Assembly (NCBI GenBank): GCA_008632985.1
Contig: QPGO01000105.1
Coordinates: 186,001-250,000, forward strand
Reading direction: 5' to 3'
DNA from: Psammoneis japonica
Taxonomy: Eukaryota
DNA: 64,000 nucleotides
Below are positions 470 to 56,033 of this stretch, one piece after another. A program made the position numbers and the translations under genes. Position 1 is the first letter of the stretch, and each line of letters begins with the position of its first letter. Under the pieces are notes generated by a model, which worked only from the letters and a program-made list of their open reading frames with translations, was not told the DNA's origin and searched no databases.

Positions 470-680
470 TTTCAATTCGAAAATTTGGAACGGGCCAACG
501 CTCTCACGAGGAGGTTCAGGATCCTTTGGATCATGCTGTTGTATTCACGTTGTTTGCCTGCCACTTTTTACACGTGTCATTCTGAAGGACTTCATCCATG
601 CCGCAGTTGCAACAACAACGAAATGACATGTTGCAAACAAGCAGCGCAACTGTGCGGTCACAGTTGAGTCGTCGCAGTGC
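470..680 (+). repeat. Direct repeat copy A (~200 bp), matches 4395-4600
   Basis: Shared ttcacgttgtttgcctgccactttttaca-gtgtcattctgaaggacttcatccatgc-gcagttgcaacaacaac. Confidence 0.9.
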
Positions 681-2605: not shown

Positions 2606-4057
2606 GTGGATGACAACAGCACCTTTGAGCCTGACTCCACTGGTGTAGAACCCAAAAGCACCAAGAATCCTGACAGCACCCTCGAGCCCAATGAAGAAGA
2701 GGAGCAAGTCGAGGAGGAGTCCATCAAAGCAAAGAAGTCTAAAGAGGAACAGCATGCCGAGGCACAGGCTCTTGCTGAGGAGTGGGCCAAGAAGAGCCCA
2801 GTGCCCATTGCAGAGCACATCAAGCAGCAGGAGCACAAAGAACCCAAGGCTCAGATGCATTTTGAGAACCTGAATCAGCAACCCCATCCCCAGAACCCGG
2901 TCCCGCTGCCAGCTGATGTCCTTGAGGAACCTGCTGGTTGCCAGCACTCCGTTGTGAGTGAAGACAAGGAAGAACACAAAGAAGGCACAGTGGCACCACT
3001 CAAACAAAAGATGAACTCACTTTGGGATGTGGCACGTCACACGATGGTTGTTGTCTGTCTTCTTGTTGCATGCACCCTCCTTGCAGGCAACGAGCCTTCC
3101 ACCAGCACTTCCTTGAGCATGAATGCACCATGCTTTGAACCTGCACCCAGATGTGAGGACCCAAGCACTGAAGCGCCACAATTGCTTTTGGACAAAGGAA
3201 TCAACACTTGTGCTCCCGGTTGCGTCTTGGAACGAGTCCCATGTCCAGAGGGCGGAATTTGCAGTGGCGGCTTTCTTCTCCTCTGCCAGGACAGCCAGTT
3301 CTTCATGGAGCCTGACCCTTGGGGCACCAAGTGCATCCTGAACAGTGGTGCGGTCGCCACACTCTCTGCCATCAAGGACACTTTGACAAATCTCACCGTG
3401 CAATGCACCTGTGACTTGGGGTGCCAGCTCCTCATGAAGAAGCATCCAGTTTTGCCAGCCAAAGTTGATGAGGACAAGGTTCCCTCGTTTGCCGTGCGAG
3501 ATGTCCAAAAGCGGGTTGACACTGACTTGGATTTGCCGCTTCTGGCTTCAAACCACTCTTTGTTTCAACTTGATGCAGAACTCCAACTGATTCGATTGAC
3601 TCGCGAAACTGTGGCCAAGGAGTTGAAAGCTCCTCTTTCGTGCACGATCTTGCACTTTGCAAAGGAGTCAGGTGTGAATGGTTGGATCTGCAGTTTGGCG
3701 AAAATTCTTTTCGACTGGGCAGTGAAGGATCCACTCATTGCAGCATCAGTTGCTGCATGTGTCATGTTGGTTCTTCATGTTGGAATGGCTCGGATCCGCC
3801 ACAAGAAGTTTCGCAACGCCATTGATGGGGTCCGTGACTTGGCCCACACCATGCTGCAAGAACAAGGTAGACCCACGGTGGTGTTGATGTTGCGTGACAT
3901 GGTGGCAAACGAATTGTGTCCTTGGTCCAGGAAGGAGCGCCGCCACTTTACGAATGCGATTTGGAAGCAGGTTGTCGCAGAAGCTAAAAGAGACCATCAC
4001 ATTCACAATTCCACTCAGAAACAATGTGGTTGCTGGCATCATTTAGGGTGGGAGTGA
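2606..4057 (+). pseudogene. Hypermutated Man1/Src1-C-terminal (LEM/MSC inner nuclear membrane)-like gene copy
   Basis: Acidic N-terminus, TM segment, Cys-rich lumenal loop (PCPEGGIC...C), second TM and C-terminal LRD...W motif resembling the MSC domain; no Tyr in 483 aa. Confidence 0.55.
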
Positions 4058-4394
4058 GGGTTGCTTCATGTTGGGCTTTGTGTGTTCTGTTGAACTTCTG
4101 CTTGTTGCTCACGCGGCATGCCTGGGCACAAGGGTTGAGAGTGGGAGCAAGCAAGCCACCAGCAACAGCAAGTGGAGGAGGTTTGGGGAGGTGGCGTCAA
4201 TTGCAAGGTGTCAATGTCACAGAGGGGAGGCAGCAGAGGCAGCTGAGTTGAGCTGAGTGCTTGCATCAATGGGGTGTCTGGCGATGGCATGGGGAGTTGA
4301 GGCTGCAGGGTGAGACAGGGAGGTGCAGCTTGCATGCTGCAGCATGAGGCGGAATTGATCTTCTGGGGCCAAGCATTGTTGGGGTGAGGAGGAG

Positions 4395-4600
4395 CAAAAA
4401 TTTGGAACTCGGCCAGCCCAACAAATGAACAAGGAGCACTCAAGATCCTTTGGAACATGTCATTGTGTTTCACGTTGTTTGCCTGCCACTTTTTACATGT
4501 GTCATTCTGAAGGACTTCATCCATGCTGCAGTTGCAACAACAACAGAATGACATGTTGCAAACAAGTGCAACTGTGCAGTTGAGTCACCGGCGCATTGCG
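4395..4600 (+). repeat. Direct repeat copy B, matches 470-680
   Basis: Direct sequence match to 470-680. Confidence 0.9.
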
Positions 4601-6399
4601 TGTGCACATCGTCGCACAATGGCATCACACTGTGGCCCTGCTCTCTCCAGCAGCAGTGCTGCAGAGAGCCAGCAGCCACTTCCTCCAGCAAGCAACAATT
4701 GTCCACGAGGAAACACCATGTTGTTCTTTTTGGGCCATGCATCGCAGTGCTGCTTCTGCTCAAAATGGCTCAGAGGGAAAAGCATCTGCGACCCACGTCA
4801 AAACATCACATCACATGGAAGCACTGCAGCAACGATGATCGCTCGTGCCATCAACCACTGCTTCACATGACAACAATGCCTCACATCATGGACCCTCCTC
4901 CACCAAGTCCAAGCATCCACTGCATTGGTGCATTGGTGCAGGTGCCGCCGGAACACCTCACGGGACACTGGGACAACTGACAGCACTGCAGCGAAGGTGG
5001 AACAGGCTTCATTGCAGGTTTCAACACTGTCGATGACCAAGTGAATGTGCAGCACACAGTCAACAACAGACTCAGTGTGGATGTCATTCCAACAGACTCT
5101 CTCCAACATCATTGGCTGTTGACAAGGTCTTGGGATTTGTGACAGCAGCATTTGCTCGTAGCAAAAATGATTTTCAGAGAGGGGGGTGCACGTGCACAAG
5201 GTCATTTGTGCTCATGCCAGCAGAAAGGTGAAGGCAAAGAAGGACTCGTGTTGCCCTTCATGTTGGGCTGTCAGAACATTCCATTGTCCAAAGATCCCAG
5301 AGAATTTGTTGCATCGCAAAGGCAAGGATCATTTTCAGAATTGGAGGTCACTGGATCAAATTCGGGGACAGAACGAAATCTGCATGGGATTGCATCCATG
5401 TCATTCTGTTGGCAAAGATGGAAGCAGTTGCTCAGAGGGGAAACAACGACAAGGGAAAACGAGTGCATCTTTTGTTCCAGTGGGACAATGCAACACCGCA
5501 TGTTGATTTGGTTCTTGTGGCCGGTGTTGATGGTGAATTCGCTCGCTCAATGCGGTTTGGAGCTTGTGCCGCAATCACCAAACTCCCCACGTGCATTTCT
5601 TTCCAGCAACAGCTGAGAGGGTCACTGCAGACCAAGGGCTTGAAAATGGTGGTCAACATTTGCAGGGGGGGCAGCTGTGGGCATCCGTTCGTCGCACTTG
5701 TGATCGCCATCCCGAGGGGACCATCTCCCGGTCATTGGTGCGCCACAGTCAAGTGGTGAAGGCTGTTTTTGAGTGTGATGGGAGTGATGATTTTGCAATG
5801 GATTTGCAATCACTTCACTGTGGGATTCGGAAGGTTTGTCAGCGTGTTTGCGCAACTCGGAAGAGATGCAGAATCCCACCGGAGTGGAGGTGAGGACTGA
5901 GCACTGGATCCGGTGGAACAGAACCTGTGGCACATGATGCTGGATGTCATTTGGGATGGGTGCAATCCGGCAGATTTCTTGAGTGAGAATGAACCTTCAA
6001 TGTTGGTGAATGATGTGGCCTGTTCGTGACTGGGAGGATGCTGAAGTGCATCTCATGGCGGAGCTAGAACAGAATCTAGAGAATTGACAGCATGCACTTA
6101 GAATCGGTACTAGAATATCTATGTTATCCTACCATCGCATCAAATTGGCATTTTATACCGTAGTCGGGCCAAAAGAAGCGATTCAATAGAGCGATCTCTC
6201 TCTAGAGGAGGTTTTTGTGGTGGCGCGAAGTCGCGCGTGAACAAAAATATGTAGAAGCAGTACCATGATGTACGGCCCAAAAAGATTAACACGGTGTTTC
6301 CTCGTGGCCAATTACTGTAACCTACTTCATACCGGCAGAACGAGCAAAGAGCAGCAACATTCAGACAAGCGTAGCAGTGTCCTCATAAGTTTCAACGAA

Positions 6400-7413: not shown

Positions 7414-7459
7414 CGTGGCACAGTCAGACTTATAACATGGTTACTACTCCAATCCTGGG

Positions 7460-21724: not shown

Positions 21725-22406
21725 ATGCAACACATTGAATTCAAGGGTGCAAGGGAAAAATTTGGATGTTTTGTGTCGTGACACAAGTTTTGGAAAAGTT
21801 TCTCGGCCCTGCCAGAGATTCCACATTGGAAAGTGAGCACAGCTTGTGTGGGCATTGGGTGCTGAGAAAGAGCACAAGTGCTTGTCAGATGCGTGCACAA
21901 TCCTTTGCCAAGCTGTGCACCCGGGTGTGCCCCATGAAGCCCAAGTCGGGGGGAGGGCTTTTGCCTCGAGATTGCAAAACGGAAGTCAATGCACTCTTGC
22001 TGGCGATCAGGAGATTGTGCTGTCCTTCTTTTGCAGCAACTGTTGAGTCAGAAGATTTCTGTAAAGCTTTGTCACCAGAGCACAAGTGTAGATGGTGTGC
22101 CCACACTGACAGCACACTGTACAGTGGAGGCGAGCAAAAACAAACACACGGCCAGACGCTGAAAAGCCGTTAAATGATTCCGTTGTGAATTAAAATCTTT
22201 TCATACGATGCTGAAGTAAACATTTCTTTTAATTAAATATAAACATTGCCACCAAAATATATATATAAAATATAAGATCCATTTCAGCGATTGCGTGATG
22301 ATCCGCGCGCGGGCCTCAAACACAGCTCAAATCTCAAATCTCAAAAAATAAAATAATCTCGGCATACAGGCAGCAAAGCTATTTTACAGCTAGTGCCGGT
22401 GATACC

Positions 22407-31719: not shown

Positions 31720-33310
31720 GATGTGAAATTTTGTGTGGGTGGCGGATCTTGTGGCGCGCGTGTGCACAGCAGCGTGCTGGCGTGCGTGGCTTCTTGCGCG
31801 ATGGAACGCGCAACGCCCTAAAATCGATCAATGAACTCCCCCTGGTAGAGACTGGCATCTGGGTGTGGTGTCTTGAATCTCGTTGGTGCCTAAACTCAAG
31901 CAAGATCTAGATCTTGAAAGTTGCCACTTGCACTGACAAATGGGGTAATCAACCAAGGGCAATTTTCTGATGTGTGGTTTGCATGTGTTGTCAGGCAGTT
32001 GTTTTGTGTTTTCTCCAATGTGGCATGAACAGATCCTCTCCGACACAGCAATGCAGCGCCTGTTTGCATCATCAAGGTGGAACAGCATCCCACTGTACTC
32101 ACCAATGCTGCTGTTTCCCACATGTTGCACTTGCTGATGCCGCTGTTTCTCACACCAGAATCATCACAGTGAGTCAAGTCAAGTGCACATCTGGCTCATC
32201 GCACAAAAAGATGTGCGCCAGCTGTCCCACCCTTGAAAGCCATGTTGTCTTCAAACTCACTTTCAACAATGACAAGCTTTGGCATTTGACCCATCAAAGT
32301 TGCAAGACAGCTGCCACCAAAGCTCACCTCATTGTCTCTGAAAGATGTCTTGTGCAAAGTGACAGTTTGCCCTGAAATTGTGGCTGAATGCTGCACAGCA
32401 GTCAGCAGCCCACCTCTGCCAGTGCCAACTGCTTCATTCCTGGTAAAAACACCATCTGTCACTGCCACCTGCAAAGCATCCTCAATGAACAGTCCACTGC
32501 CAGCATGCAACTTCTGTCCATTGAAAAAGATGGAGAGTTTTGGATGAGTGTGCTGTCTGCGGTTTGGATGAACAAGTTTCCACCTCCAAGGTCATGACGA
32601 CCTTCGTCGAATGAGCAGTCCAGCACCCTGTGATTGCCATTTGCAAGAACCTCTGCCACATCCTTCTTTGGTTTTCCCTCCTCTGAGACCAGCGCCAGCA
32701 AGGGAAAAATTGTTTCCAGACACGAGAAGATTTCTGTTGTCACCCGTGCTTGCCATCAAGCACATTTCTCAGATTCACAGCAAAGTGTCACACCTGACTG
32801 AGCAACGTTGATGGCAGATTGAAGATGGTGTTGCAGCTGTGTTTCCTCCACAGAAAGACACAACAGAGTCTTTTTTTGCATTGCCTGCTTTGGATTGAAG
32901 GTTGGAAAAGGTCGAGACACAAGAACCAGATGTCGGTGTGCGGCAGGATGGAGTTGGAGTCGGCTCTGGCAAAGGGGCACGTCGCTGAAAGAAGCAGTCC
33001 AAAGGGGTGACGCAGGATCCATCACAGACATGTCATCATCAAGGAACTTCTCCCAAAAGTTGTTGCTTTCAAAATGTGTTTCATTGGACATGCAGAGTTC
33101 TCCCTCTGCATCTTCTTCTGCTTGTGCTTTTCCTGCTGTTCTGCTGTTTTTGGATCACTCCGCTTGCACAGCATGAAGTTTGTCGCCTGCATTGCTTCAT
33201 TGTCAAACAGCACTGTGGCAGCCAACCAGCATGTCCTGTACATCCCATGATCATGCATCGTGATGGATTGACACTCATTTCTTTCATCGGTTTGTGAGGA
33301 GACTGGTTTT
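31720..33310 (-). pseudogene. TpA/CpG-depleted block with a degraded beta-helix (Pmp/pectin-lyase-like FxxN...GG repeat) gene
   Basis: FTRNEAVGTGRGG, FRDNEVSFGG and FEDNMAFKGG in ORF 32196-32510; fragmented frames; TA nearly absent. Confidence 0.55.
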
Positions 33311-39224: not shown

Positions 39225-40345
39225 GGTTGCTGTTTTTGTTCTGTTGTTGTAGTAGGAATATCCAATGCAACAGACAAGAACAACACAAGAAGGTTGCGTG
39301 GTCTCATTTTTTCTCACAAAAAATACGTGGCACTCAATTGGCTTTCTCGTTGAAATATTATTTAAATACTTGGATAAATATATTCACGTACAAATTCTAC
39401 ACGCGATCTTTGTATCATGTGACTTCTACTCGAGAGTGATACTACTGGATTTATGATTCTATTAGCCCATGTATGCAATTATTACTCACTTCTTGGAGGG
39501 AAAATCCACGCAATATACAAAAAATTCAGGTGCTGAAGAAGAGCATTGAAATTTCGAAAGCATAAACGCCTTTTCCTTCATCAGAATTTTGGCGACGAGC
39601 CAATGAGCAAACCAGCATCGACGCAAGTGACAATGACAACCACAGTATGAAACAACAATCATGACGACGACAACAAATACCACCAGTGACCTTCCGAAAC
39701 GGCAAAGAATACGAAGAAAAGAAGATCAGAGCACACTTTTCCTGTTTTGTTTGGCAGCCTTGGCCATGGTGTGCCACACGCATTGCATTCACAGGGCGGC
39801 TGTCAAGTTGTCGTCGCCGAGTAATGATTTGCATCTGAAATCCTTTCAAGCACCAAGAATACAAAACGAATCGACGAATCGAAAATTTACAATGGGACAA
39901 GTGCTGAAAGCTGCTGTTGCTGAAAAGAAAGAGAAAATGGCAAAAGAACAAACAGCACGGCAAAAACAGCAACAGCACACCGGTCAACCAACACCCGTAA
40001 ATGAGCTCATCACAATGTACCCAGACAAGAAAGAATTATTGGAGATTTTAAGAAACGCCGGAATCACAGAATTGGACGACGAGACGGCATTGAAACTTCC
40101 GACATGGTCCGACGTGACGGCACTCTATGGAACCAAACCCATCCTGTACGGATTGGATCAGTGCAAAGTATTCCGACAAAGAATCGACTTGTCCAAACGC
40201 CACTTGGGGATTGCCGGAACCTTCAATGCGGGTGCCAATCTCTTGTTTGAATTGCTCGAAGCCAATTGTCGTGGACCCCGGGGTCGCATGGCGGATCATC
40301 AAGTTCCGTGGGGTAAACACAATCCACCCCTCAATGAAACGATTC

Positions 40346-40636
40346 TGCCAAGTGGCGCCAAGTAATGGTATAAAGTGGCGTTGTAAAGTTGACTGTTGCT
40401 AATGTTGTGAGAAGAAATGAAAGAGATTCGGCTGCTCCGAAATCTCGTAGAATTAATGCTAAGAAACCGCGTAGAAATATAAAGAAACAATCTTTCGAGA
40501 GGCATCGAGATGTATCGAGAAAGGAGAAGAGGTTTCTAGAAAGTGTCATCGTTGACATCCTTTTGACACTTTTGACACCAGGTTGACACCCACGAATGAA
40601 TATACGAATGAATATAGATGACCGTGATATTCGGCA
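40346..40636 (-). repeat. 3' LTR
   Basis: 280/291 identical to 44331-44621 by manual alignment. Confidence 0.97.
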
Positions 40637-40657
40637 CTCGCTTCCCCAATTGAGACG

Positions 40658-43600
40658 TTAGAAGACAGGGTGAAGACGGCGGATATTGATACGTTCAGTG
40701 ACGTGAGGCGAGCGCTGGATGGTAACGGTTCCATTGGTATGGACACGTACGATACGGAAAGGACCATCTTTGGTGTTGAGTTTGCGTTGGATGTCTTTGG
40801 TCATAACGAAGACTTGATCGCCGATGTTGTAGTCGTAAGTAAGACGTTTTGCGTTTTCGCGGAGATTATTGCGTAGGACATCGCGCTTGCGACGGGTATT
40901 AATCATTTTCCAGTTCGCAAGATAAGTAGCAGAAATGACCATGTCTCGACCGAAGACAATTTGTCCGGGAGACGACATAAGGGCAGTATGGTAGGTACTG
41001 CGCAAGGCCCATGCAACGGATTGCAAAATTCCATGAATTGTGTCTTCATCATGATCGCGAGAAGGGAGATCCATCGCACGGAGAGAATCGGCTATCACTT
41101 GATGAATACGTTCAACGAACGCGTTGGCTTGAGGATTCTTGATTGTTGTAGGTTTCGGTTTAACACCATAACTGTAGAGGAGATCTGTAAACTCGGAAGT
41201 GAATTCGGAACCGTTGTCATAAATGACAATTTCTGGTCGCGGATAGCGACAAAACCACTCGCGATCGACGATAAGTGAAATGTCTTCGGACGTTTTGAAC
41301 TTATAGTTCGCGAGTTCGACCCAACGGGTTGCGACATCAATAATTGAAACGGCTCTGATTTTGCGATCGACACCATTTTTGTCGGTATACGTCCAGGGAC
41401 CGAAAAGATCGACTTGAGTTGCCTGCCAAGGTTTATAAGTAGTATCTGGAAGAGGTAATTCACCATAGTTTGCCGTAGTGCGCTTGGATTTGGAACACGT
41501 GCGGCACTTACGGACAAAAGTACGGACTTTCATCTGCATGTCGCGAATGTAAAAATGTGAAGCCAAAGTTTGGCAGGTGCGATTAGCACCAGGATGGCAG
41601 AGAGTTTCATGGTGCCACCGTAGAACTGCAGGAAAAAGCGTTGGAGGGAGGACAATCTTGTTCTTGTAAAGGATGATCTGTTTTCCGTTGAATGGTTCGG
41701 CTGAGTGGGATTCGGACTTGTCGAGTCGTTGCTGAAGAGCAGAATCTTTTTTCTGATGGTCGGCGATAATGTCGAAAGTAACGGGGAATATTGAAGGATC
41801 GATTTCCAACGAAGTCATTTCCTCGCAATCGCTTTGATCGACTTGGACAATGGGACAGCGACTCAAAAAATCAGCCACGACATTCTTGTGGCCTGGTGGG
41901 TGCTCGAAAGAGCAATCGCATTCCTCGAGAAGCAAACGCCAGCGTTTGACGCGTTCTGACTTGAATTTGTCAAATGTGAGATTTTTGTGATCGGCAAACA
42001 GGTAGCATCGATGACCAAAAAGGATGCTTTTGAAATTTTCGGTCGTTTCCACGAGCGACAGTGGCTCTTTTTCCATTGTCGTGTAGTTTCGTTGCGCTTG
42101 AGATAATTTTCGGCTGTAGAATGCAATTGGCCATTCGTCATCGTCAAAATCTTGAGTAATTGCTGCACCAAGTTGACAATCACTCGCATCCGGATAGATG
42201 TTGAAAGGTTGAGAGAAGTCGGGGAATCGGAGGAGGATTTCGCGCGCCGTGATTTTTTTCATCGGATGCCGTTCGAGACACTCGTTGAGTTTCCGTAAAT
42301 CGGATGAGAAACGGATGCCACCGCTTTTCTTCGATCGGAAAAGACAGGGTGCGCCCCAAGGAGAGTGAAGTTTGCGCGCAACAACATCGATTTTTTCCAA
42401 TTCATCCACTTCTTTGCGAGCCATGGGATGTGACGCTTGCGGAACAGTGTGAGCTTTCGCACAGTGTGGACGCGATCCTGGTTTCAGGGTCAAATGGACG
42501 GGTTTACCGGGTGCAGCTCCAAGTGTACCATCGAATAATTGCGGGTATCGTCCGAAGAGTTCGATGAGTTGGTGCTGTTGATCGTTGTCAAGGTGTTTGC
42601 AGCGTAGAACCATGTCGCGACAATTGTGCTTGTCGTACGCATTGCTCGTCATACCTCGAACCTGACGGTTGACGGCATTCTGGAAGAACTTGGGTAATTC
42701 AGCATCGCCGGGATGAATTGCATTAACTTCGACTTGGTCGAAAGAGCCCTTGGATCGCATGGATAGGGTAACATCGCCCCACGTGATTGTTTGATGTCGA
42801 AAATCAAAAACGAGTCCCATTTCTGTGGCGGTTTTTCTTCCGATGATAATGTCGTGTTTTCCTACGGCTTTGTCTTCCACACAAGCATCGACGGAAACCT
42901 TCTTGGACGATGCGAAGTCTGGGAACTTCAATGTCAGCGTCGCAATCTCGTGTAGATTAACGGCACTGTAACGGCCTTTAACGGGAACGTTACATTTACG
43001 GATTTTGTGAGGAATCCCGCGAAGGGCTGAGCGCTTCACAAAATTGCGATTTGCGCCGGTATCGAGCAGAGCAACACGGAACTTGTGCATTCCAGAATGA
43101 GTGTCAATCATCTGGACACGCGCTTCCGTGGTAAGATTGTCTTCTACTTCGGATTCGATGGAATCGTCTAGAAGAGACGTGACGTCTTCAAAAATGTCGT
43201 TGACATCGTCTGACGCGACGCTGTCGACATCGTTAGAAGCGGAGCGACTGGCTTTGGAGTCCACATTATTGTTTTCGACGTTCCGTGTGCGGCTCCGTGT
43301 AGGATAGCGGTGTGTCGGCTCGTTTCGAGAGTTATTTTGTTGATTCGGCGCATTCCGATTTGCGCGGTTCCGCTCATAATTTTCACGTTCACGACGGATG
43401 ATGTTGCACTCTTGACCGTTCGGATGTACAACGCCATGGATTGGACATGTTTGTTCACGATTGTTTTGATTCCTGTTCCTGGCATCGCGATTTTGGTCGT
43501 TATTCTGGCCGTGACGCGTGTGTCGACCGTTGTTGCGTTGATTCCTATTGTCATTGCGTCTGTTGTTGTCGGTAGACCCTTTGTCACCACGTCGTTCCAT

Positions 43601-44257
43601 ACGTCGGAGAGTCTCGTAGTGTTGAGCTTGGTCGTTCAAGTTTAAGTTGCGAAGACGGGCTTTAGTCTGAGTTTCGGCCCATGATCTTGGTCCACATTTT
43701 CGAAGGATTACGGATAATTCCGCTTCCGTGAATGACGGAACTCTTTCGGCGTCATCTTCGGTTGGCGTAGGCATGATATTAATCAACTTATTAAAGCGAC
43801 GGATGTCATTAACAAATGACTTGACAGTTTGGTTCCTGGGTTTCTTAAGGCTTTGAAGCCATTCCTTAGTATCAAGGGCAATTTCTCTATCCATGTATTG
43901 GAGTAGAAATTCTTCACGACAAGTATCGAATGTAACTTGGTCGCGGTTTTCGTAATCGTCTACGACGATTTCCCAGTCGTCTTTTGGTGTTCCGGTCATA
44001 AGTCTGGTCACGAGCCGGAAACGTGGCTGTCCTTCAGCCGTACCGAGATCGTTGATAAGTTCATCGAAGTTTGACCAGAAGGTAAGAACATCTTCCGGTT
44101 CAGTTGAAGCTAACTTACGTACCTCGATCGTAGTTTTAAGCCCATCTGGATCGTCAGGATCAATGGGGCTTTCAAAAGACACGAATTGGTCTTTGCGCCG
44201 CTCTTCCTCAGAGCGGTCAGGACGCTTAAGTTCGAATGGGCAGTTTTCTGCTGACAT
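40658..44257 (-). CDS. Gag-Pol polyprotein (protease, truncated RT, RNase H, integrase)
   Basis: LLDTGA; SPWGAP..DLRKLN; DAS..LGA, DHKNL, NVVADFLSR; zinc-finger HHCC, VDLFGP, YDNGSEF, NPQANAFVER; GPF. Confidence 0.93.
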   Translation of the reverse strand: MSAENCPFELKRPDRSEEERRKDQFVSFESPIDPDDPDGLKTTIEVRKLASTEPEDVLTFWSNFDELINDLGTAEGQPRFRLVTRLMTGTPKDDWEIVVDDYENRDQVTFDTCREEFLLQYMDREIALDTKEWLQSLKKPRNQTVKSFVNDIRRFNKLINIMPTPTEDDAERVPSFTEAELSVILRKCGPRSWAETQTKARLRNLNLNDQAQHYETLRRMERRGDKGSTDNNRRNDNRNQRNNGRHTRHGQNNDQNRDARNRNQNNREQTCPIHGVVHPNGQECNIIRRERENYERNRANRNAPNQQNNSRNEPTHRYPTRSRTRNVENNNVDSKASRSASNDVDSVASDDVNDIFEDVTSLLDDSIESEVEDNLTTEARVQMIDTHSGMHKFRVALLDTGANRNFVKRSALRGIPHKIRKCNVPVKGRYSAVNLHEIATLTLKFPDFASSKKVSVDACVEDKAVGKHDIIIGRKTATEMGLVFDFRHQTITWGDVTLSMRSKGSFDQVEVNAIHPGDAELPKFFQNAVNRQVRGMTSNAYDKHNCRDMVLRCKHLDNDQQHQLIELFGRYPQLFDGTLGAAPGKPVHLTLKPGSRPHCAKAHTVPQASHPMARKEVDELEKIDVVARKLHSPWGAPCLFRSKKSGGIRFSSDLRKLNECLERHPMKKITAREILLRFPDFSQPFNIYPDASDCQLGAAITQDFDDDEWPIAFYSRKLSQAQRNYTTMEKEPLSLVETTENFKSILFGHRCYLFADHKNLTFDKFKSERVKRWRLLLEECDCSFEHPPGHKNVVADFLSRCPIVQVDQSDCEEMTSLEIDPSIFPVTFDIIADHQKKDSALQQRLDKSESHSAEPFNGKQIILYKNKIVLPPTLFPAVLRWHHETLCHPGANRTCQTLASHFYIRDMQMKVRTFVRKCRTCSKSKRTTANYGELPLPDTTYKPWQATQVDLFGPWTYTDKNGVDRKIRAVSIIDVATRWVELANYKFKTSEDISLIVDREWFCRYPRPEIVIYDNGSEFTSEFTDLLYSYGVKPKPTTIKNPQANAFVERIHQVIADSLRAMDLPSRDHDEDTIHGILQSVAWALRSTYHTALMSSPGQIVFGRDMVISATYLANWKMINTRRKRDVLRNNLRENAKRLTYDYNIGDQVFVMTKDIQRKLNTKDGPFRIVRVHTNGTVTIQRSPHVTERINIRRLHPVF

Positions 44258-44330
44258 GTCTGGTCAGGACAATATGATCGGTAGACATATCTCAAGAGAG
44301 ATGAATAAGTGTTTGGGAGTAAATTTACTA

Positions 44331-44621
44331 TGCCAAGTGGCGCCAAGTAATAGCATAAAGTAGCGTTGTAAAGTTGACTGTTGCCAATGTTGTGAGAAGA
44401 AATGAAAGAGATTCGGCTGCTCCGAAATCTCGTAGAATTAACACTGAGAAACCGCGTAGAAATATAAAGAAACAATCTTTCGAGAGGCATCGAGATGTAT
44501 CGAGAAAGGAGAAGAGGTTTCTAGAAAGTGTCATCGTTGACATCCTTTTGACACTTTTGACACCAGGTTGACACCCACGAATGAACACACGAATGAATGT
44601 AGATGACCGTGATGTTCGGCA
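44331..44621 (-). repeat. 5' LTR
   Basis: Matches 40346-40636; followed on the + strand by TSD GATTC. Confidence 0.97.
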
Positions 44622-45871
44622 GATTCGTCTCCAACGAAAACCAAAGGGATACGAAGCATTTGACGATGTCAATGAAATCTTTCCAATCGTCACAATTCGT
44701 AATCCCTACTTTTGGATGAAGGCCATTTGTAAAAAGCCCTGTGCCGTACGATGGCTTCACGACAACAAGCTGCATTGTCCCAATCTCATTCCGACAAAAC
44801 AAGAATTGCAAAACAATCGTCGCTTTCAACCCAACCATCCTGTACGTGTCGGTGTTTGGTGTCAAAAGACATGGGTCATTCATCACGATTCCCTAGCACA
44901 CATGTGGAATGACATTCACGAATTCTACAAGAATCAAGTGTCCTTTCCCCGCGTCATGGTTCGAATGGAAGATTTGATCTTCTTTGCACCCCAAATCATT
45001 TCCGAGTTGTGCACGACCTGTGTCGGTGGGACGTTGTTGGATCCACAAAAATTTCAATACGCGACAACCAGTGCCAAACCCAAGCATTTCAAAAACGGTG
45101 CAACCGGTACCGGTTTGGTGGATGCCATGATCATGTACGGGAACGCATCACTTCAATGCGAGGGGCGTGCACGGGATGATTTGATGTTTGCAAACAAGAC
45201 GCTATCGAAAGAACTGATGGAGACATTTGGGTATCAGTACGTGCAAATATAGTAGAATTGGAATGAGTGTAAAGTATGAGAGAGCTGCTCCACAAGTCTA
45301 AATCATGGATACACCGTGTTTGTGTGTTTTTTTGGCTTGGCGCTTTGGAGTTGTGCCGCACCTCAAGTCGTTCTGTAGGGCCTAAGATGTGCATGCTTAA
45401 GAAGTATTTCCCCTATACTCTCTCTATGGAGCTAAAGTGGCTCTACTAGAATACTTCTGCTCTCTAGAGAGAATATAACAAAGCTATGGTCGTTTTCATT
45501 CGCGGGAACCGATCCAGATTGGAGATAACGGTAGAAGGCAGGACCGTCACACGACATGACGTCATAAACTACCGTTGATCCAAGACCAAACTTATAGTAA
45601 GTACGATTGAAAACGCGATCCAATTAGAGCATGGCGCTCACAATTTTTACTCAACGCATCGCAACGAATTTTTGGGAACCAACACCAAATCGAACAGCAC
45701 CGTACTGTAGGAAGAATTACGACACAAAGGAGCGAAGAAAAAGAAATTTCGAGATAGATACGCACTGTTCAGACACCAAGGGTTTCGGCATTTGTCCACT
45801 TCATTCATGCCAGTGTGTCTCCCGCAAAAGAAAAAGTGCGGCTGCCAAAACGTTCATTGTGACAAATCAAG

Positions 45872-49230: not shown

Positions 49231-51544
49231 ACATAGCTCAGAGTTTCTTTTGAGCTTGAAGATGGAGTTAACACCCTTTTTGTGTAGCTCTCTAGACTTT
49301 AGTAGGAAAATGATTGTACGTATTGCAATGCATGCAGCGCTCTGATTTACATTTTTGCAATGTGCTTTGGGCGCGTTAAGTCTCAGTAAGCTGCCTGACG
49401 TCGCCGATGCTTGCCGGTTACAAAAAGCTCAGAAAATGCAGAGCTGGGAGTGTGTCACTCTGACCCTTCTGTCATGATGCCATTTCTCTCCTTGCCAATG
49501 ACAAAACCAAGCGACACTTTTAGACCCTGTTGTTCCCTTTGAGAAGAAATGCAGCAGGAGCATTCTGAGTGCTTGCTTGACTTTTGTGTGTGTGTGCTGA
49601 AGATGTGATGATGCCTCTCTTGATTTTTTGGAATGAAATTGTCAACTCCTTTTGTGTGCACTGTACTTGGCTTCATCCATCATTGCAGATGATGTCAAAT
49701 GTCAATTGGAGCACTCTGGAGTTGAGATCTCATTCAAGGATTTGTGCTCTTCCATGATTCTGGCAAAGCCACCAAGCCCCTTCTTGTCTCATCAGAAAAT
49801 GCAGTGTGTTGTCAGCTGCTGCAGAGAGTGCAACAATTGCAGCAGGATCCAAGTTCCTTCCTGGCAGAAATCCTTTTGATGGCAGAAGTGCATTTTGCCT
49901 CAAAAGTTGGCCCAGTTGGAGCAGCTCTCTTTGGTTTTTTGTTCAAACAGTCTGCTTGCACCTGTGTTTGATGCACATCATTTTTCATCCAAGCTTTCTT
50001 CCCAAGTCAATTGCCATTTCCAGCAGTGGAGTCATTGCAGCTGAGTTTGCCAAGATCTTTCAAAATTTGGGCACAAAATGGCAAATCTCCACAAAGAGCT
50101 CTGTGACTTGGCTCCACAAAGTGCAGCTGATGAGAAGATCTTCTTGACGGGAGCACACAATGCCAATGTTGCACTTTTGTTTTCAATGAATTGCTTTTGC
50201 AAGCTTGTGAAGTTGAGTTGCTCAAACCTTTGCTCTGTTGAAGTGTGGCCTCATGTCAAACAAAAAAAGGTGATTGTTTGCCCTCACAGTTGTTTGTCCT
50301 TGAGAAATTGGCAGCGGTCAGGTGTGCCAGGCACTCACACATTTGCAGGGGTGGCACATGTGAGCCAATTTGTTTGGCATGGAGCTTGTTTTTGAGCATT
50401 GTCTCAGCAGCAACTTGTCATGAAATGCACACCAAGTGGCTGTCATTGGCGGTGCCAGACCAGGCAGATGTGCCAAGAGAGCAGCAAACAGCTGCCAGAA
50501 AAGCTGCCACAGCCAGGAAGCAGGCATCTTGAGCAAAGTTGTTTCCTTGCTTGCAGTGTCTGAAAATGAATTGTGAGCTGTGAGTGATCTCTGTGAGCAG
50601 AAAACCAGATTTCATCACATTCATGCCAAAGCACAGTGCCATGAGACCACAGACCAGCTTGGGCCAGGCTGAGTTTGAAAACTGAGAAGCTCAGGATGTG
50701 CTTGCATTGAGAAGCTCAAGTGCAACCTTCAAAGGTGAGGTGATGTTGAGAGCAGTTGTCATGAAGAAAAAGTGGCTGGTTTTTGTGTTTTGGGGGGCAT
50801 GGGCAGACTTGGTTGCTTTGCAAACAAGGCCTCATTCAGCACCTTCCCCCTGCTCTCTGCCCCAATGACAACAAGTGACCACAAAATGCTCTGCTGACAA
50901 ATGAAATGTGCCACTCCCAGAAACAAATCACACCATTGACCCTGCAAAGCTGAGAACCACCATGACTCCGGACAAGGGTTTGCAAGTGCCACAAATGAGC
51001 AGAAGGTCTCTTGGAAGGAGCAAACGTCATCTTCTTCTTTGTGAGCATGAGTGTCTTTGAGTGAGATGACTTTGGCAAAAGCACAATTTTTTCCATGAAT
51101 TTTTTAGGTCATGAGTGAGTTGTGGTTTGAGCTGGCATCTTAGAAGTGCTTTCAATGGGACAACAACCAAAGCACCAGCAATGACAGCACAGATGAGATT
51201 CATTTTCTGTTGCCTGGCACAAGAAACTTGGACTCCTGTCCCAGCACAAAGACTCAGCATTGTTTCTGTGCACACAACTTCCTTGATGATCTGTCCCATT
51301 GCAACACCTGGGACAAAAGTGACAGGAGGGCAGAACCATCTGGGCAAAGATTCAGTTCTGCAGAAGTTTGTGCCAGCTTTTTGTGCAAGGCAAATGCACA
51401 TTGTGGAGAGTTGGAAATCTGACAGACAACAATGACAACATCAGAGCAACACATGTGCATGCATGCCACGTGCCAATCCAGTCATTGAAAACTCCAAAAC
51501 AAAAGATCTTTCTTGCAGTTCTCATGATTTCTCCACGAGAAGCA

Positions 51545-52320
51545 CAGTTGAAAAAAGACAATGAAGATTGCCAATCTTGTTCTCATTCTTGTCACCACTG
51601 GACCTTCTCAAACAATGAGAAAACATTGTGGTGCTGTTCTCCTGTCAAAAGAGCAGCACATTGAGAACCTGAATCATGTTGCCAATGGCGCTGCCACCAG
51701 CCAAGGACTGTGATGACCACAATGCACTGCGCATCATTGTGAGGACCATGACCAAGATGACCCTGGCACATGTTGATGGTGCCATGAAGGCAGACAACTC
51801 ATGTGGGCCTGGCAATGACAATGTTGCCTTTGACTCCTTGAGTGCTGGTGACCCTGATGGCGTGCAAATTGTGTTGTTGAAAAGGAGTGGAAGAACCAAT
51901 CCCTGTCAAGAAGGGCAGTCTTGTTGCACTTCCTGGCACCAAGTTCCACCATCACATGGTTGTGAACAGTGGCTCAGTGAAGATCACTGGCCCCTTGGTT
52001 TGCAAAAGCATGTGCTCATCATCTGGCTAAAACCACTGACACAGGAGGTGGCAATTTTTTTGTTGGCTTGTTTTCAACATCAGAAAGTGCCAGCTGCTGC
52101 TGGCATGGCTTTGGCTCTGCAGCAGACTGAGCAAAAAGGTCAATGTTGCCAAGAAGGACAATGCCATCACCTTGGAAGAGTGAGTGCAGCTCAGAGCATC
52201 CATTGCAAACAGCCTGAAGATGGAGGCAACATTTTTGTTGAGTGGCTCCTGCAAACATTGGCAGGAAACTGATTGCAAGGTGTGTTGCAAAGCAGCAATC
52301 TGATTTGCACTGCAATGTTT
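51545..52320 (+). pseudogene. Hypermutated duplicate of the 48469-49230 gene
   Basis: gacaatgaagattgccaatctt, catgttgatggtgccatgaaggc and ccctgtcaagaagggcagtcttgtt are collinear with the intact gene. Confidence 0.92.
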
Positions 52321-55300
52321 TTTGCTCACGCCAAGTTGCAGCAAATTGTGCAACACAGCTGGTGGTTGCTGGTTGCATGAAAAAGCTGAGAATTGTGCAC
52401 TGTTGGGGCAAACCCTGCACCAGGATCATCGCAAACAGCTGCAGCATGACCACACAAACCTTGTTTCCCACTCATGTCCAGGCATCTTTCTTTCATCTGT
52501 TTCCATTCCAACATGAAAACCAATGAGAGACATTGTTTGGTTTTGCCATTGATGGAAAGGAGAAAAGTCAAATGGCATTGAACAGGCTTCCACATGTGTT
52601 TCATGACAGAATGACTGGGGTCACAGATCTCCCAGCTGCACTTCATGGTGTCAAAAAAACATGACAGCAGTTGCCAAACTCACAGGAACACATTCATTCA
52701 TCTGGCAGAAAGTTGACAAATGTTGACGAACAGCAACAAATCCTCCAACTCATTTTGGCCTGAGAACAAGATCAACAGATGGAGAAAAAGCACAGTGCTT
52801 GTGTGGCCAATGGCAAACCAGCAACAACAAGTGCCATGAAAGAACTGCAACAAGAGTTGATGGCCCAGCACCCTGACAATCAGATGCCACAATGCAGAGG
52901 GACAGCACGTGTGCATGCAACTGTGGCTCATTAATTTTTTGACACTTCAACCCCCTCTCATTCAAAATGGGAGGGTTGTTGGTGCTCAATCAACATGCTG
53001 CCATTGCAGCCCCATTTTTGTTTTGCTGTTGAGCACTGCAGGGCTGTGCAAACCTCTTGACACCCATTCTCTGCACCTTTGTGCTTGCTGTGCTTTTTGT
53101 GTGTGTTTGATGTGGCACTCCTTAACTCCAACATGTTCTGGATGATGTTGCACACTTGACAAACAACACAAGGTGTGCTGCTGCAAAATGATTGTGGCAT
53201 GCACACATCAAACTTGAAAAAGCCCTTTTCACATGTGACAGATGTGCTCTTGTTTGGCAAAACTGGCAATGAGCATGAGAAGCTCTCTGATGACAGGTCA
53301 CACAAAATCATGCCATGTGTGCTTTGGTCAAATGTGCTCCAAATCATGTGATGAGGTTCGTGGCTGCTGATGGCCAGGTGTCATGTGGGTTGTTTTTGCA
53401 AAAGCTTGACAGACACCCAGCTCTTGCCAACTTCTCATTTGATCAAGAACAAGCAAACACTTTGACCATTGCTTTGTGTTTGTGCATGTCACACATGTTG
53501 TGGTCACAGCATGAGGGCACACAGTTAGTTGTGTTGAAGAGAGTGCTTTTTCGTCTCCACCTTCTCTCCCCAAAAACACTCTTTTGGGCCACATCAAAGC
53601 TTCAGATGTGAAATGTGTGCCACTGATGTCTCCAACACCTGTTTCAGCAATGTGCTGGTTGCAAAAATCTCACTCACAAAATGCTTGACACAAAGCTTAC
53701 AATGCACTGGTGCTTGACATGCAAAGAATGCAAGCCCATGACATGTTTTAGAAAACATGATGAGCTGCACTAGATGCACGCATTTGACCTTGGTCCAGCA
53801 CTCACAAGACATCACAGAGTGCACTGACATTGGTTGCAGCCATCACAGTGCATGGTGCTCAGCTCTGTCATTGTAAGACACATCATGCAAACAGCCAGTC
53901 AAATGCCACCTGCATGATGTTCTTGTGGAAAAAGTCACAGCTTGTCCCCCCCCCCCCCACACACACAAAAAGCTCAACTTTTGTGAAAATCAACAGTGTT
54001 GTCAACCTTGCAACAGGGCACAGCTGACAAGCAGTGGCATTTGAAGCTCCAAATGTGCAGCTTCTCTTGTGCCAGCACAAAGTGGCCCTGACAAGGGCTT
54101 GACAAATGCACAAGAGTTTGGGGGTGCTTTTTGAGGCAGATCAAAATGACGCAACATGCTGGAAATGCAAACAACTGGCTCAGCTTTGACTGCAGCATGC
54201 AGATTCATCCTCAAAGGCCATCACAATTTGACTGCTGGGGCCTTCATGATGGAAGTGGTGGGCAACCAGATGATGACCACCATTGTCTGCTTCAATGTCA
54301 CACACAAGCAGAACAGCACAAAGATGAGCATCTGTGATGGAAAGCTTGCATGTCTGGCAAGTGCTCCACATGCTCATTTTGTGAGGGAGAAATGTCCATG
54401 AGAGATTTTGCTGCAAAAAAGGACACAATCATTGCCCCAACATTGCGGCAGAGATGGGTGTTGTGACCAACTGGCATCATCTCCAATTGTGCCATCAGGG
54501 AGAAATGCAAACAAGAAACTTCAGCTGCCCTGCAGAAAAGAAGAAGCACACACAACCAAGAAATGTAATCTCAGGGGGCAAACTTTGCACTTGCTTTGCA
54601 GCAGAGTGCTGCACGCACCAAACAATTTCATTTGCAGTGCAGGATGTGTAGAGCAGGGTGAACATGACCCAAAGAGTGGCACACTGTCAGTGGTCTCATT
54701 TGCCAAGCTGCAGTGCTCACTGCCACACAAGCAAGTCCAAAGCAACTGGCATTGTTTGGCGCAGAAATGCCATGCTGTTGAATGTTGCTCATCAAGCTGA
54801 GGGTGAAAGCATGTCACATGCATGACAGAAAGCACAGAATCTCCTCCCCTCGTCCAAGTGAACAGCAGCCAAGCAAGAAAACAGCAGGCACAAGGAGCAC
54901 AAAATGCTCCATGAGACAAGTGACCCTCATCAAACAAGAGCAAAAATTGAAGTGCAGGGCTGATGTGACAGCTGTGGTGTGCAATCTGCGGCACCAGGTT
55001 GTGCTCTCCTGTCATCAGAGCAAGACATCTGGTGCTCTGCAGCCCTTTTCATGGGGGGATTGTGTGCAGCGTGCACTGCACTGGCAACTGCTGGCAGATG
55101 CTGGCAATGTTGAGGGGCTCCTCTGCCAATGTGCAACAACACAAGTGCCACTCATGATCTGCAGAAGATGTGCACAAGCTCAGACTCATTCTGCTGTGCA
55201 GGCACATCACAGCACAATTGCTTGCCAGCCACAAGTGAGCTGAGTCACAAGGATTGTGCACAGCCAGCTGCCCCCCACCACAGCCACACCTTTTCTGGCA

Positions 55301-55469
55301 AGCAAAGCCCCCACGCACATGATGCAACCTGTTTTGCAGGAGCAAGGGTTTGCTGAGAACCACAAGAGATGAGCTTCTGGGGCAAAAACCTTCATTTGCA
55401 GATGAAAACACTCACACATGTGTGCACTGTGTGAGTGCACACTGCCTCATGCTGCAGCTGATAAGTTCT

Positions 55470-55470
55470 C

Positions 55471-55503
<33 letters not shown>
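55470..55503 (+). repeat. (CAG)n microsatellite
   Basis: Direct reading. Confidence 0.9.
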
Positions 55504-56033
55504 CGAGCTGACTCGGGGACAGTGCTCTTGCAGTTGTTGGCAACAACAACAAACTTTTTGTTGCACCCCTGCTCAACGTGCCAGTCTCTCCCAATGTTGA
55601 GCATGCCAAAACTGGCAAGAAGCCTTGGAAACTCCCCAAGATCTTTTTTGAAAACTGTGTTTTGAGACAAACCACGATGACAAGAGAGAATGGAGAGCTG
55701 CACAGCAGTGACGAGCCCAGTGCTGGGGGCACACTGGGGTGTTTGCAACACAACACATCACTCAGTTTGCTGTCTTCTCATTTGATCAACAAGCAAATGC
55801 TTCAATCAGCACAGGATGAGAGAGCATTGCGGTCTGCTTGCCTCCCCTCCCCCAAAAACTCATGCCGAGACGAACGTTCGAGACATTTCAAAAATGACTT
55901 ATTGTTACAAAATGAACAATGTTCATCTTTGAACATAATCATTTGATTATGATGTCCCTAACGCCTATTTTGGCGATACGGCCCCCGCCCGGCCTTCCCT
56001 TGTTGAGACAAATCGGGTCAATTCAAAGACCAC

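Follow-up and report, generated by a model that had tools for sequence, protein, structure and literature searches.

Probable TpA-restricted A:T to G:C hypermutation of a Ty3/gypsy-type LTR retrotransposon after its insertion

The window, that is the whole stretch of 64,000 nucleotides analysed here, carries an LTR retrotransposon lying within a gene, and the features are summarized in Table 1. The element is classed from its sequence as a Ty3/gypsy-type LTR retrotransposon that was inserted into the gene and has lost its reverse transcriptase core. The traits of this type that are present are LTRs of the form TG..CA, a 5-bp target site duplication (TSD), a polypurine tract and an RNase H placed before the integrase. 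As GATTC stands on both sides, the LTR pair stems from a single insertion, and recombination between elements did not bring it together. The polypurine tract adjoins the LTR at 40346..40636 and the element sense is therefore the minus strand. Pfam search of the polyprotein (1199 codons) identified RT_RNaseH, Integrase_H2C2 and rve and gave no match to RVT_1. The reverse transcriptase core is gone through an in-frame deletion near 42262, where the alignment to P0001 skips residues ~697 to 887; by Pfam and by this alignment the copy has no reverse transcriptase domain of its own for autonomy. Fuller copies of the family are present in the reads, and a contig of another copy has 983 letters between 42262 and 42622 against 359 here. 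The gene flanks at 40010-40348 and 44666-44981 matched 58060-58396 and 58433-58745 with 69-72% identity; in this paralogue the matching segments are only 37 bp apart.

Table 1. Coordinates of the element, the interrupted gene and the TpA-poor blocks in the window
Feature	Position	Strand	Remark
Interrupted gene, upstream half	39661..40365	+	paralogue match
TSD GATTC, left copy	40341..40345	.	read directly from sequence
LTR, 291 bp (3' LTR in element orientation)	40346..40636	-	starts TG, ends CA
Polypurine tract GGGGAAGCGAG (element sense strand)	40637..40647	-	directly adjoins 3' LTR
Polyprotein ORF, single open frame, 1199 codons	40658..44257	-	gag-like N-terminus, RNase H, integrase
LTR, 291 bp (5' LTR in element orientation)	44331..44621	-	starts TG, ends CA
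TSD GATTC, right copy	44622..44626	.	read directly from sequence
Interrupted gene, downstream half	44581..45252	+	paralogue match
Block nearly without TpA	570..6064	.	12 TA in 5495 bp, CA+TG 1175, CpG about half of expectation
Short TpA-free block	31947..33238	.	2 TA in 1292 bp
Block nearly without TpA and CpG	49522..55899	.	6378 bp, TpA 14, CpG 35, CA+TG 1536

The two LTRs were aligned without gaps and were identical at 280 of 291 positions. The realignment returned exactly the 11 differences that the first-pass annotation had named (40367, 40369, 40377, 40400, 40457, 40458, 40461, 40601, 40603, 40614 and 40629 in left-LTR coordinates). All 11 were transitions, six A/G and five C/T on the plus strand, and all were located at TpA, as had been claimed; one LTR shows the dinucleotide TA where its partner shows TG or CA, except at 40457-8, where the left LTR has TG and the right LTR has CA. 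The 15 CpG and 36 ApA of the left LTR were all unaltered, which is in accordance with the earlier remark that some 15 CpG and the AA runs were untouched. The left LTR has lost 3 of its 21 ancestral TpA by derived changes that are all A>G on the plus strand (40367, 40377 and 40458). The right LTR has lost 8 of 21, by T>C at 44354, 44385, 44442, 44586 and 44588 and by A>G at 44446, 44599 and 44614, so that it holds both kinds of change. Two TATA-like words near 44584-44600 were also seen among the altered sites of the right LTR. Over both LTRs, TpA was changed in 11 of 42 cases (26%), compared to 0 of 72 for ApA (Fisher p = 7e-6) and 0 of 30 for CpG (p = 2e-3); counted by bases, 11 of 84 TpA bases had changed against 0 of 498 other LTR bases (Fisher p = 3e-10). 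The chance of all 11 differences being of TA type at a background share of 20% is 2e-8, and the TA-type excess in the LTR pair is not due to chance. The earlier proposal of a process acting after insertion, on both strands and at TpA only, is supported, since the LTRs of one insertion differ, the derived changes comprise six A>G and five T>C on the plus strand and the other bases are unchanged. At the rates in the available text of a 2026 preprint by Mettrop et al. on the marine alga Bigelowiella natans (bioRxiv 10.64898/2026.01.13.699255), the 26% loss corresponds to about 2.8e4 generations, for which 0.005 background hits in the LTRs are expected and 0 were observed.

The direction of change is not readable from the two LTRs alone because C>T at CpA/TpG looks identical, and the TG-versus-CA site alone is insufficient for a TA ancestor because an ancestral CG fits equally. 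The polarity was set in four ways, using other copies of the family, a third LTR copy, outgroup polyproteins, and TG/CA double differences resolved by the outgroups. At 40377, where 17 contigs were compared, A accounted for 4144.7 of 4182.3 summed depth and G for only 37.6; the family state is thus TA and the G of the left LTR is private to this copy. A family carrying TG/CA had been named earlier as grounds for reversing the direction, and at this site the contigs gave TA. For eight of the 11 LTR sites the state in other copies follows only from the lack of an alternative among the best-supported 40 of 736 differences, and the runs X1-X3 are one sample, possibly the assembly's own source, so that the bases are not independently confirmed by them. 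The third LTR copy (X2 record 7, with 8 of its 10 differences listed) has TA at 40376-7 and at 40457-8, which bears out the earlier reading of the latter site as hits on opposite strands of one TA; at 40400-1 it reads TG, as against TA in the left LTR and CA in the right.

The outgroup comparison used 11 polyproteins that are 47-49% identical to the polyprotein of the element. Among them 377 columns were invariant, and the element differed at 60 of these. At invariant tyrosines the element showed four Tyr>His and three Tyr>Cys changes (7/19), compared to 0/17 for the reverse change of invariant His or Cys to Tyr (Fisher p = 0.008). Tyrosine was the residue most often lost, at 8/19 against 52/358 for all other invariant residues (p = 0.005). 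Ten of the outgroup-polarised residue changes fit loss of TA and none fit its gain, a polarity that spans the whole lineage of this copy, beyond the time since insertion. At three residues the element and the other copies showed TG/CA double differences: CAC against TGC at aa 603 (outgroups Tyr 11/11), CCA against CTG at aa 732 (Leu 11/11) and GCA against GTG at aa 699 (Val 11/11). The ancestor was TA each time (Tyr TAC, Leu CTA, Val GTA) and never CG; at aa 213 and aa 1005, where the difference is single, the outgroups were Tyr 11/11. All four approaches agree and, by these sequence comparisons, show that the direction is TA>TG/CA, which upholds the one first proposed.

The family is multi-copy, with 628 contig pieces recovered from run X1. 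Comparison of these contigs with the present copy gave 601 sites with transitions and 134 with transversions, and 27 of the best-supported 40 of 736 differences were of the TA/TG/CA type. The family variants listed within the LTR (40401, 40403/4, 40583 and 40589) are the same in both LTRs. Another copy has A at 40367 and C at 40369, as in the right LTR, and recurrent hits or gene conversion are therefore needed for these common states. The pattern among the contigs indicates that the TpA process acted on other family copies too. The composition of the element showed rho values of 0.53 for TpA and 1.38 for CpG, a TpA/ApT ratio of 0.54 and a (CpA+TpG)/(ApC+GpT) ratio of 1.04. Its rho TpA was the lowest beside 76 related loci (0.54-0.92), and its GC content was 0.465 compared to 0.38-0.43 in the nearest relatives. 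The ORF of 1199 codons contains 0 stops; had C>T acted on its 64 stop-prone codons at the LTR-derived rate, the frame would have stayed free of stops with a probability of ~8e-4. As TA>TG/CA never creates a stop codon, open frames are kept, and the intact frame and the amplification of hypermutated master copies are consistent with such a process.

The nearby sequences showed ordinary spectra. In control paralogue pairs inside the window the TA-type share of differences was 54/265, 19/130 and 30/257, and in control repeat pairs of related elements it was 19/151. Window duplicates at 85-97% identity had a TA-type share of 12-20% or none. The 113-bp tandem units at 11377-11714 have acquired other changes, yet all 17 of their TpA are still there. 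For an ACS-like gene of cellular type the Tyr-loss test had no power, having a single conserved Tyr. The process is therefore patchy, because nearby non-transposon DNA and paralogue pairs show ordinary spectra, and its target would be silenced mobile or foreign DNA rather than repeats as such. The first-pass annotation had called the process RIP-like, in the sense of repeat-induced; this description is not supported, as the 85-97% duplicates are spared and, in the available part of the preprint 10.64898/2026.01.13.699255, the main hypermutable region of B. natans is single-copy. The spared duplicates rule likewise against a trigger by duplication of the fungal RIP type.

The TpA-poor blocks were analysed by the cluster thresholds that the accessible text of 10.64898/2026.01.13.699255 gives. 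Two TpA-depleted, CpA+TpG-enriched clusters were obtained in the window, at 1001-6000 and 50001-56000; in the block at 570..6064 five consecutive 1-kb windows passed the thresholds. The block at 49522..55899 is complex sequence and not a simple repeat, and its six consecutive 1-kb windows had rho values of 0.00-0.13 for TpA, 1.82-2.10 for CpA+TpG and 0.06-0.27 for CpG. No homology to retroelements was seen in the blocks: the best tblastn E was 0.033, and a Pfam search of 18 frames gave 0 families. The blocks are probably the end state of the same process run to saturation.

Taken as a whole, the element is probably a Ty3/gypsy element that was hit after insertion by A:T to G:C hypermutation restricted to TpA on either strand. 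The retrotransposon would have inserted into the gene with two equal LTRs, and hypermutation would then have turned TpA into TpG or CpA on either strand. The same process would edit other family copies, and saturation would yield TpA-free blocks. Damage by the process falls on codons for Tyr, Ile, Leu and Val, and on TATA-like words and other signals rich in TA. To our knowledge, no route from A to G in DNA is well known other than that of the adenine deaminases TadA/ADAT2 and of the base editors derived from TadA; a natural activity of such an enzyme on chromosomal TpA would be hypothetical. Conversion of adenine to inosine in DNA at 5'-TpA, through deamination by an ADAT2/TadA-like enzyme, is suggested, tentatively, as the most likely route, at slightly short of an even chance. 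The target was described earlier as adenine; since TpA is its own complement, adenine and thymine targets are indistinguishable and a thymine-directed process, the main alternative to adenine deamination, would give the same result.

A wider version, in which a transposon-directed TpA editor works alongside transposition and one deaminase takes both A at TpA and C at CpG as substrates, is considered unlikely. Under it the edited masters would still be amplified, since TA>TG/CA makes no stops, and TpA and CpG would vanish together in saturated blocks as every self-complementary pyrimidine-purine step becomes TG or CA. In its available text, 10.64898/2026.01.13.699255 cites ADAT2 enzymes deaminating both A and C in DNA. 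Under this version the host might also be other than B. natans, and the system would then be more widespread.

Other chemistry is improbable, be it error-prone repair synthesis as by polymerase eta (WA>WG), or modification of thymine at TpA, for instance to 5-hydroxymethyluracil, which is then miscoded or misrepaired. The self-complementary TpA would accommodate it, as A>G on one strand equals T>C on the other, and 5-hydroxymethyluracil prefers TpA in dinoflagellate DNA. The polymerase-eta type, a candidate of the first-pass annotation, was rejected, as it would also hit A after A and ApA is unchanged at 0/72 against 11/42 for TpA. Editing of single-stranded cDNA by a deaminase during reverse transcription, with APOBEC3-like timing and adenine at TpA as target but nothing later in the chromosome, is highly improbable. 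With the element reading on the minus strand the right LTR is the 5' LTR; by the textbook scheme, the three changes of the 3' LTR, all T>C in the sense strand, would be predicted by late minus-strand editing, and the five of eight 5'-LTR changes that are A>G in the sense strand by editing of plus-strand strong-stop DNA. However, three of the 11 changes (44446, 44599 and 44614) fall on the strand that stays unexposed under this model, the TpA-free blocks are without retroelement homology, and 10.64898/2026.01.13.699255, as far as its available text goes, saw the same spectrum in already integrated single-copy DNA.

Ectopic gene conversion, in which equal LTRs were later patched from family copies with TA/TG/CA polymorphisms, is hardly credible. 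The multi-copy family with its TA/TG/CA-type variation and the copy having the states of the right LTR at 40367 and 40369 would suit it. However, the listed LTR family variants are equal in both LTRs, derived states switch between the LTRs over short distances and the G at 40377 is private; even if conversion had occurred, the mutation process and its direction would be unchanged. A reversed polarity, with the TpA arising by deamination of cytosine (at CpA/TpG as in RIP, or from methylated CpG by decay), is equally parsimonious from two LTRs alone, including an ancestral CG at the TG/CA site, and has next to no probability in view of the family TA at 40377, the seven Tyr>His/Cys changes against none in reverse, the three double differences with a TA ancestor, the stop-free frame and the CpG-rich, TpA-poor element. 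An assembly artefact mixing reads of different copies into the two LTRs, for which the hundreds of near-identical contig pieces and the sole run with the locus, possibly the assembly's own source, might speak, is just as negligible: identical TSDs and matching gene halves frame the element, the private G at 40377 is present at low depth, and mixing would also import the non-TA variants of the family.

The preferred reading, TpA-restricted hypermutation after insertion, was compared with known systems. The fungal RIP profile was rejected on its indices (TpA/ApT and (CpA+TpG)/(ApC+GpT) as given above) and on the reversed direction. RIP is similar in its dinucleotide-specific transitions on both strands and its sharply bounded blocks in mobile DNA, but it is C>T at CpA, creating TpA and stops, the opposite direction and base, and it needs duplication, whereas the window duplicates are spared. 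APOBEC3 is alike in that retroelements are hypermutated in the manner of an enzyme, at a fixed dinucleotide context, but it acts on cytosine, on one strand and during reverse transcription, while here A:T pairs are changed on both strands of a single LTR and the two LTRs are unequal. Hyper-editing of dsRNA by ADAR is likewise clustered A>G after T/U on either duplex strand, but its neighbour preference is not absolute and here it is 11/11; by the scheme of reverse transcription, RNA editing cannot make LTR-LTR differences, because an edit in RNA would be copied alike into both LTRs.

The first-pass annotation knew of no described defence of this kind; the preprint 10.64898/2026.01.13.699255 reports the same signature, so the kind of hypermutation is already known. 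According to its available text, TpA>TpG/CpA changes arose de novo in mutation-accumulation lines of B. natans, where two viral regions received 231 of the 302 new mutations; of these 231, 230 were A>G or T>C changes, and every one of those lay at TpA. They arise in resident integrated DNA and in some lines only, the genome has 124 depleted clusters with reverse-transcriptase and DDE domains enriched in TpA-poor genes, and an ADAT2-like protein is named as candidate enzyme. The present case is alike in that integrated foreign DNA is affected and that A:T>G:C transitions are the sole type of change and TpA the sole site, both strands being hit, with TpG and CpA as products and with TpA-depleted, CpA+TpG-enriched clusters as the long-term trace; the window has a rho TpA of 0.45 and a TpA share of 3.1%, compared to 0.45 and 3.3% for the giant-virus region of B. 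natans. By this likeness it is taken to be the same kind of process as in the integrated viral DNA. It differs from the preprint in that the target is an LTR retrotransposon family, that the timing comes from an LTR pair with no de novo events observed, and that the saturated blocks have lost CpG too; the words LTR, retrotransposon and CpG have 0 occurrences in the available text of 10.64898/2026.01.13.699255. The new points are the LTR retrotransposon as target, the proof from an LTR pair of post-insertion action on both strands, and the loss of CpG in saturated blocks.

The spectrum is thus confirmed from sequence alone and extended from viral inserts to a retrotransposon family. An LTR pair serves as internal clock and internal control, with 26% of TpA gone and no other base changed, and LTR pairs offer a genome-wide measure of the process. 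As the process can remove TAA and TAG stops and never creates any, open frames in TpA-free blocks are not to be read as genes. The hypermutation defences known to us so far, RIP and APOBEC, deaminate cytosine. A TpA-restricted A:T>G:C editor would be their mirror image, so far documented in one preprint only, and a natural TpA-specific DNA adenine editor, if it is such, would be of interest for base-editing work.

The two LTRs of the Ty3/gypsy-type element were realigned without gaps over 291 bp each, giving 280/291 identical positions. The target duplications flanking the element are identical, indicating that both LTRs derive from one insertion. Every one of the 11 differences is a transition, with 6 A/G and 5 C/T as read along the + strand, and falls at a position reported by the first-pass annotation. 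One LTR carries TA and the other TG or CA in each case, the sole exception being the dinucleotide 40457-8, where the left LTR has TG and the right CA. The left LTR has 15 CpG and 36 ApA, all of them intact, in line with the earlier remark on about 15 CpG and many AA runs. With TA taken as ancestral, each LTR had 21 TpA, of which the left lost three (40367, 40377, 40458) and the right eight (44354, 44385, 44442, 44446, 44586, 44588, 44599, 44614); the two LTRs do not differ significantly in this loss (p = 0.16). Products of both strands are present within the right LTR. The claim that TA was changed to TG or CA after insertion and on both strands is borne out.

The spectrum was compared with chance expectation. 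The share of TA/TG/CA-type differences was 54/265, 19/130 and 30/257 in three paralogue pairs within the window, and 19/151, with 44/151 transversions, in repeat pairs (identity 90% or higher) within related metagenome elements. At a 20% share, the probability of 11/11 TA-type differences is 2e-8; by base, 11 changes fell in 84 TpA bases against 0 in 498 other LTR bases (p = 3e-10). A marine metagenome contig (L007:414-9783) carrying a related element in two tandem copies, 97.3% alike over 4.7 kb, was used as a control and likewise showed an ordinary spectrum, the 116 differences between the copies including 33 transversions and 16 of TA type.

The older paralogue pairs within the window have ordinary spectra, as does a roughly 4.8-kb tandem duplication, which contains a protein kinase gene (best match of the ORF 30%) and a 314/457-codon frame of unassigned family. 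The 113-bp tandem units kept 17/17 TpA though they gained other changes. The process is therefore patchy, with duplication as such no trigger, and the earlier term RIP-like finds no support in the sense of repeat-induced. The low-TpA stretch 21354-22061 and its two paralogues gave alignments too divergent to read. A RIP profile for the element was ruled out by its composition (rho TpA 0.53, CpG 1.38, TpA/ApT 0.54). Compared with 76 related metagenome loci (0.54-0.92), the element has the lowest rho TpA, and it has a GC of 0.465 where its nearest relatives have 0.38-0.43. None of the 76 loci showed strong TpA depletion, and nothing points to the process in the hosts of these loci.

Two copies alone give no direction, since C>T at CpA/TpG, with CG ancestral at the TG/CA site, fits equally well. 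The direction was tested by four lines, namely family copies, a third LTR copy, outgroup proteins and double differences. The locus is present in only one sample, possibly the source of the assembly itself, to which all three sequencing runs searched (X1, X2 and X3) belong; X2 and X3 contain almost nothing of the locus. In all, 628 contig pieces match the element, and compared with it they show transitions at 601 places and transversions at 134. Among the best 40 of 736 contig differences, position 40377 is A in 17 contigs (4144.7 of 4182.3 depth), so that TA is the family state there and the G of the left LTR is private. The family state at the LTR sites had been set beforehand as the test of direction, and it was TA at 40377, not TG/CA. 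The same best 40 of 736 include 16 positions forming eight adjacent TG/CA doubles, 11 single TA versus TG/CA differences, four CG versus TG/CA and nine others. In the third LTR copy (record 7 of X2, eight of its ten differences listed), the dinucleotides 40376-7 and 40457-8 both read TA. The proposal that 40457-8 records hits on one TA thus gains this copy in its favour, while the pair alone also fits CG. At 40400-1 the third copy has TG, the left LTR TA and the right LTR CA, three states requiring two events if TA is ancestral and four if CG is.

The outgroups were 11 related polyproteins, 47-49% identical to that of the element, with 377 columns invariant among them, 60 of which differ in the element. 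Invariant Tyr was lost at 7/19 columns as Tyr>His (4) or Tyr>Cys (3), compared with 0/17 His/Cys>Tyr (p = 0.008), and Tyr was the most eroded residue (8/19 versus 52/358 for the others, p = 0.005). Counting Ile>Met (ATG), Val>Ala (GCA) and Leu>Pro (CCA) as well, TA loss fits ten changes, and TA gain by transition fits none of the changes in these columns. At the double differences in residues 603, 732 and 699, this copy has CAC, CCA and GCA and other copies have TGC, CTG and GTG, the 11/11 outgroups having Tyr, Leu and Val, which places the ancestors at TAC, CTA and GTA. Tyr is likewise found in 11/11 outgroups at the single differences in residues 213 (CAC here, TAC in other copies) and 1005 (TAT here, CAT in other copies). 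The unanimous outgroups indicate that the hypermutable ancestor was TA, never CG, and that derived states occur in this copy and in other copies alike. The probability that all 64 stop-prone codons stay clean under interior C>T at the LTR-derived rate is about 8e-4; by the genetic code itself, TA>TG/CA cannot create a stop codon. The acetyl/acetoacetyl-CoA synthetase-like ORF, with 60 homologues and 60 conserved columns of which only one is Tyr, gives a Tyr-loss test in a cellular-type gene no power. The four lines agree on the direction from TA to TG/CA first proposed from the LTR pair.

The most likely chemistry, put forward tentatively, is that adenine at TpA is deaminated to inosine in the DNA. 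A thymine-directed route at TpA would have the same outcome and is indistinguishable from adenine deamination on these data, because TpA is its own complement. Editing of cDNA intermediates fits the strand of 8/11 changes and fails for 3/11. Gene conversion from other copies is possible at a few sites, but the underlying mutation process would stay unchanged. Synthesis of the polymerase eta type (WA>WG), one of the candidates initially named, is unlikely, as 0/72 ApA were changed against 11/42 TpA (p = 7e-6). RNA editing would not explain the LTR-LTR differences, since both LTRs are copied from one template. The process itself would have silenced mobile or foreign DNA as its target.

Coordinates of the element, its surroundings and the TpA-poor blocks (window, + strand numbering)
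Feature	Position	Strand	Detail
Target duplications, 5 bp	40341-40345; 44622-44626		GATTC
Left LTR	40346-40636		TG at start, CA at end
Right LTR	44331-44621		TG at start, CA at end
Polypurine tract	40637-40647	- (element's sense strand)	adjoins LTR
Open frame, 1199 codons	40658-44257	-	between the LTRs
Site of missing stretch	42262-42622		359 letters here, 983 in another copy's contig
Tandem duplication	7455-11489; 12271-16288		85-89% identity
Tandem units, 113 bp, n=3	11377-11714		96-97% alike; end of kinase gene
Synthetase-like gene	36924-39224	-	two frames, stop codons and frame change between
Long frame	57769-64000		1360 codons, then at least 625 more; units ~1047 bp, 69-89% alike
Block	570-6064		12 TA in 5495 bp
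Block	31947-33238		2 TA in 1292 bp
Block	49522-55899		14 TA, only 35 CpG in 6378 bp; CA+TG 1536
Direct repeats, ~180 bp	516-696; 4440-4617		first block; 84% identity, 3.9 kb apart

The position of the polypurine tract makes the right LTR the 5' LTR. The 3' LTR (40599-40615) keeps two TATA-like words that in the 5' LTR, the promoter side (44584-44600), are altered by the changes at 44586, 44588 and 44599. Pfam search of the 1199-codon frame revealed RNase H, an integrase zinc-binding domain and the integrase core, and no reverse-transcriptase domain. Its alignment to a related polyprotein of 1415 residues (P0001) skips residues from about 697 to 887 of the latter. About 624 bases, the reverse-transcriptase core, are missing while the single frame is still open, and the alignments point to loss of this core by in-frame deletion. 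The contig of another copy holds the missing stretch, hence fuller copies exist and the movement of this copy would depend on them. Protein searches for same-family copies yielded no match above 64% identity. The flanks of the element match 58060-58396 and 58433-58745, only 37 bp apart in the paralogue, and by this comparison the element sits within a gene. The interrupted gene is a paralogue of the start of the long frame, which matches Effector-associated domain 1 weakly. The neighbouring synthetase-like gene, 58% identical to its closest homologues, has the look of a pseudogene or contains a short intron.

Counts per 500 bp revealed three blocks almost free of TpA, with sharp edges. Their sequence is complex, and simple repeats were excluded. 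No Pfam family was found across 18 read-through frames, no block-to-block similarity was found, and four polyproteins used as tblastn queries reached no better E than 0.033. Two ORFs of the window, compared for a possible viral origin, were unmatched in the viral contig collection. Open frames of up to 400 codons within the blocks (e.g. 2855-4057) have no Pfam match and may be by-products of mutation and not genes, since TA loss removes TAA and TAG. The direct repeats of the first block may be the LTRs of an ancient element edited to completion, with no surviving coding homology. Within 50001-56000 the rho CpG stands at 0.06-0.27, and within 1001-6000 at 0.30-0.56, compared to 1.38 in the element. 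This co-loss of CpG in the TpA-free blocks could reflect a second process (methylation of cytosine in silenced DNA, for instance) or a single editor acting on two substrates.

The finding is real, its direction is right, and it is another instance of a kind of process described once, in 2026. The first-pass annotation knew of no such genome defence; one description of TpA-directed hypermutation was found in the literature, a preprint reporting the same spectrum in Bigelowiella natans (Mettrop et al., bioRxiv 10.64898/2026.01.13.699255). In that study, 231/302 new mutations in mutation-accumulation lines fell within two integrated viral regions, 230/231 of these being A>G or T>C, every one at TpA, and they arose in some lines only. 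It describes 124 clusters genome-wide with TpA depletion and CpA+TpG enrichment, with reverse-transcriptase and DDE domains enriched in TpA-poor genes, and proposes an ADAT2-like protein as editor. The giant-virus region and our window share a rho TpA of 0.45, with TpA shares of 3.3% and 3.1% respectively, and the preprint's thresholds applied to the window gave two clusters, 1001-6000 and 50001-56000. The process here is probably the same. From the preprint's figures (211 hits, 6169 TpA, 3132 generations), the 26% TpA loss would correspond to about 2.8e4 generations, assuming the same rates here; 0.005 background LTR changes are expected in that time and 0 were observed. CpG, LTR and retrotransposon do not occur in the available part of the preprint text, to which the present case adds a retrotransposon as target and an LTR-pair clock. 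TA-rich signals would be eroded by a TpA editor.
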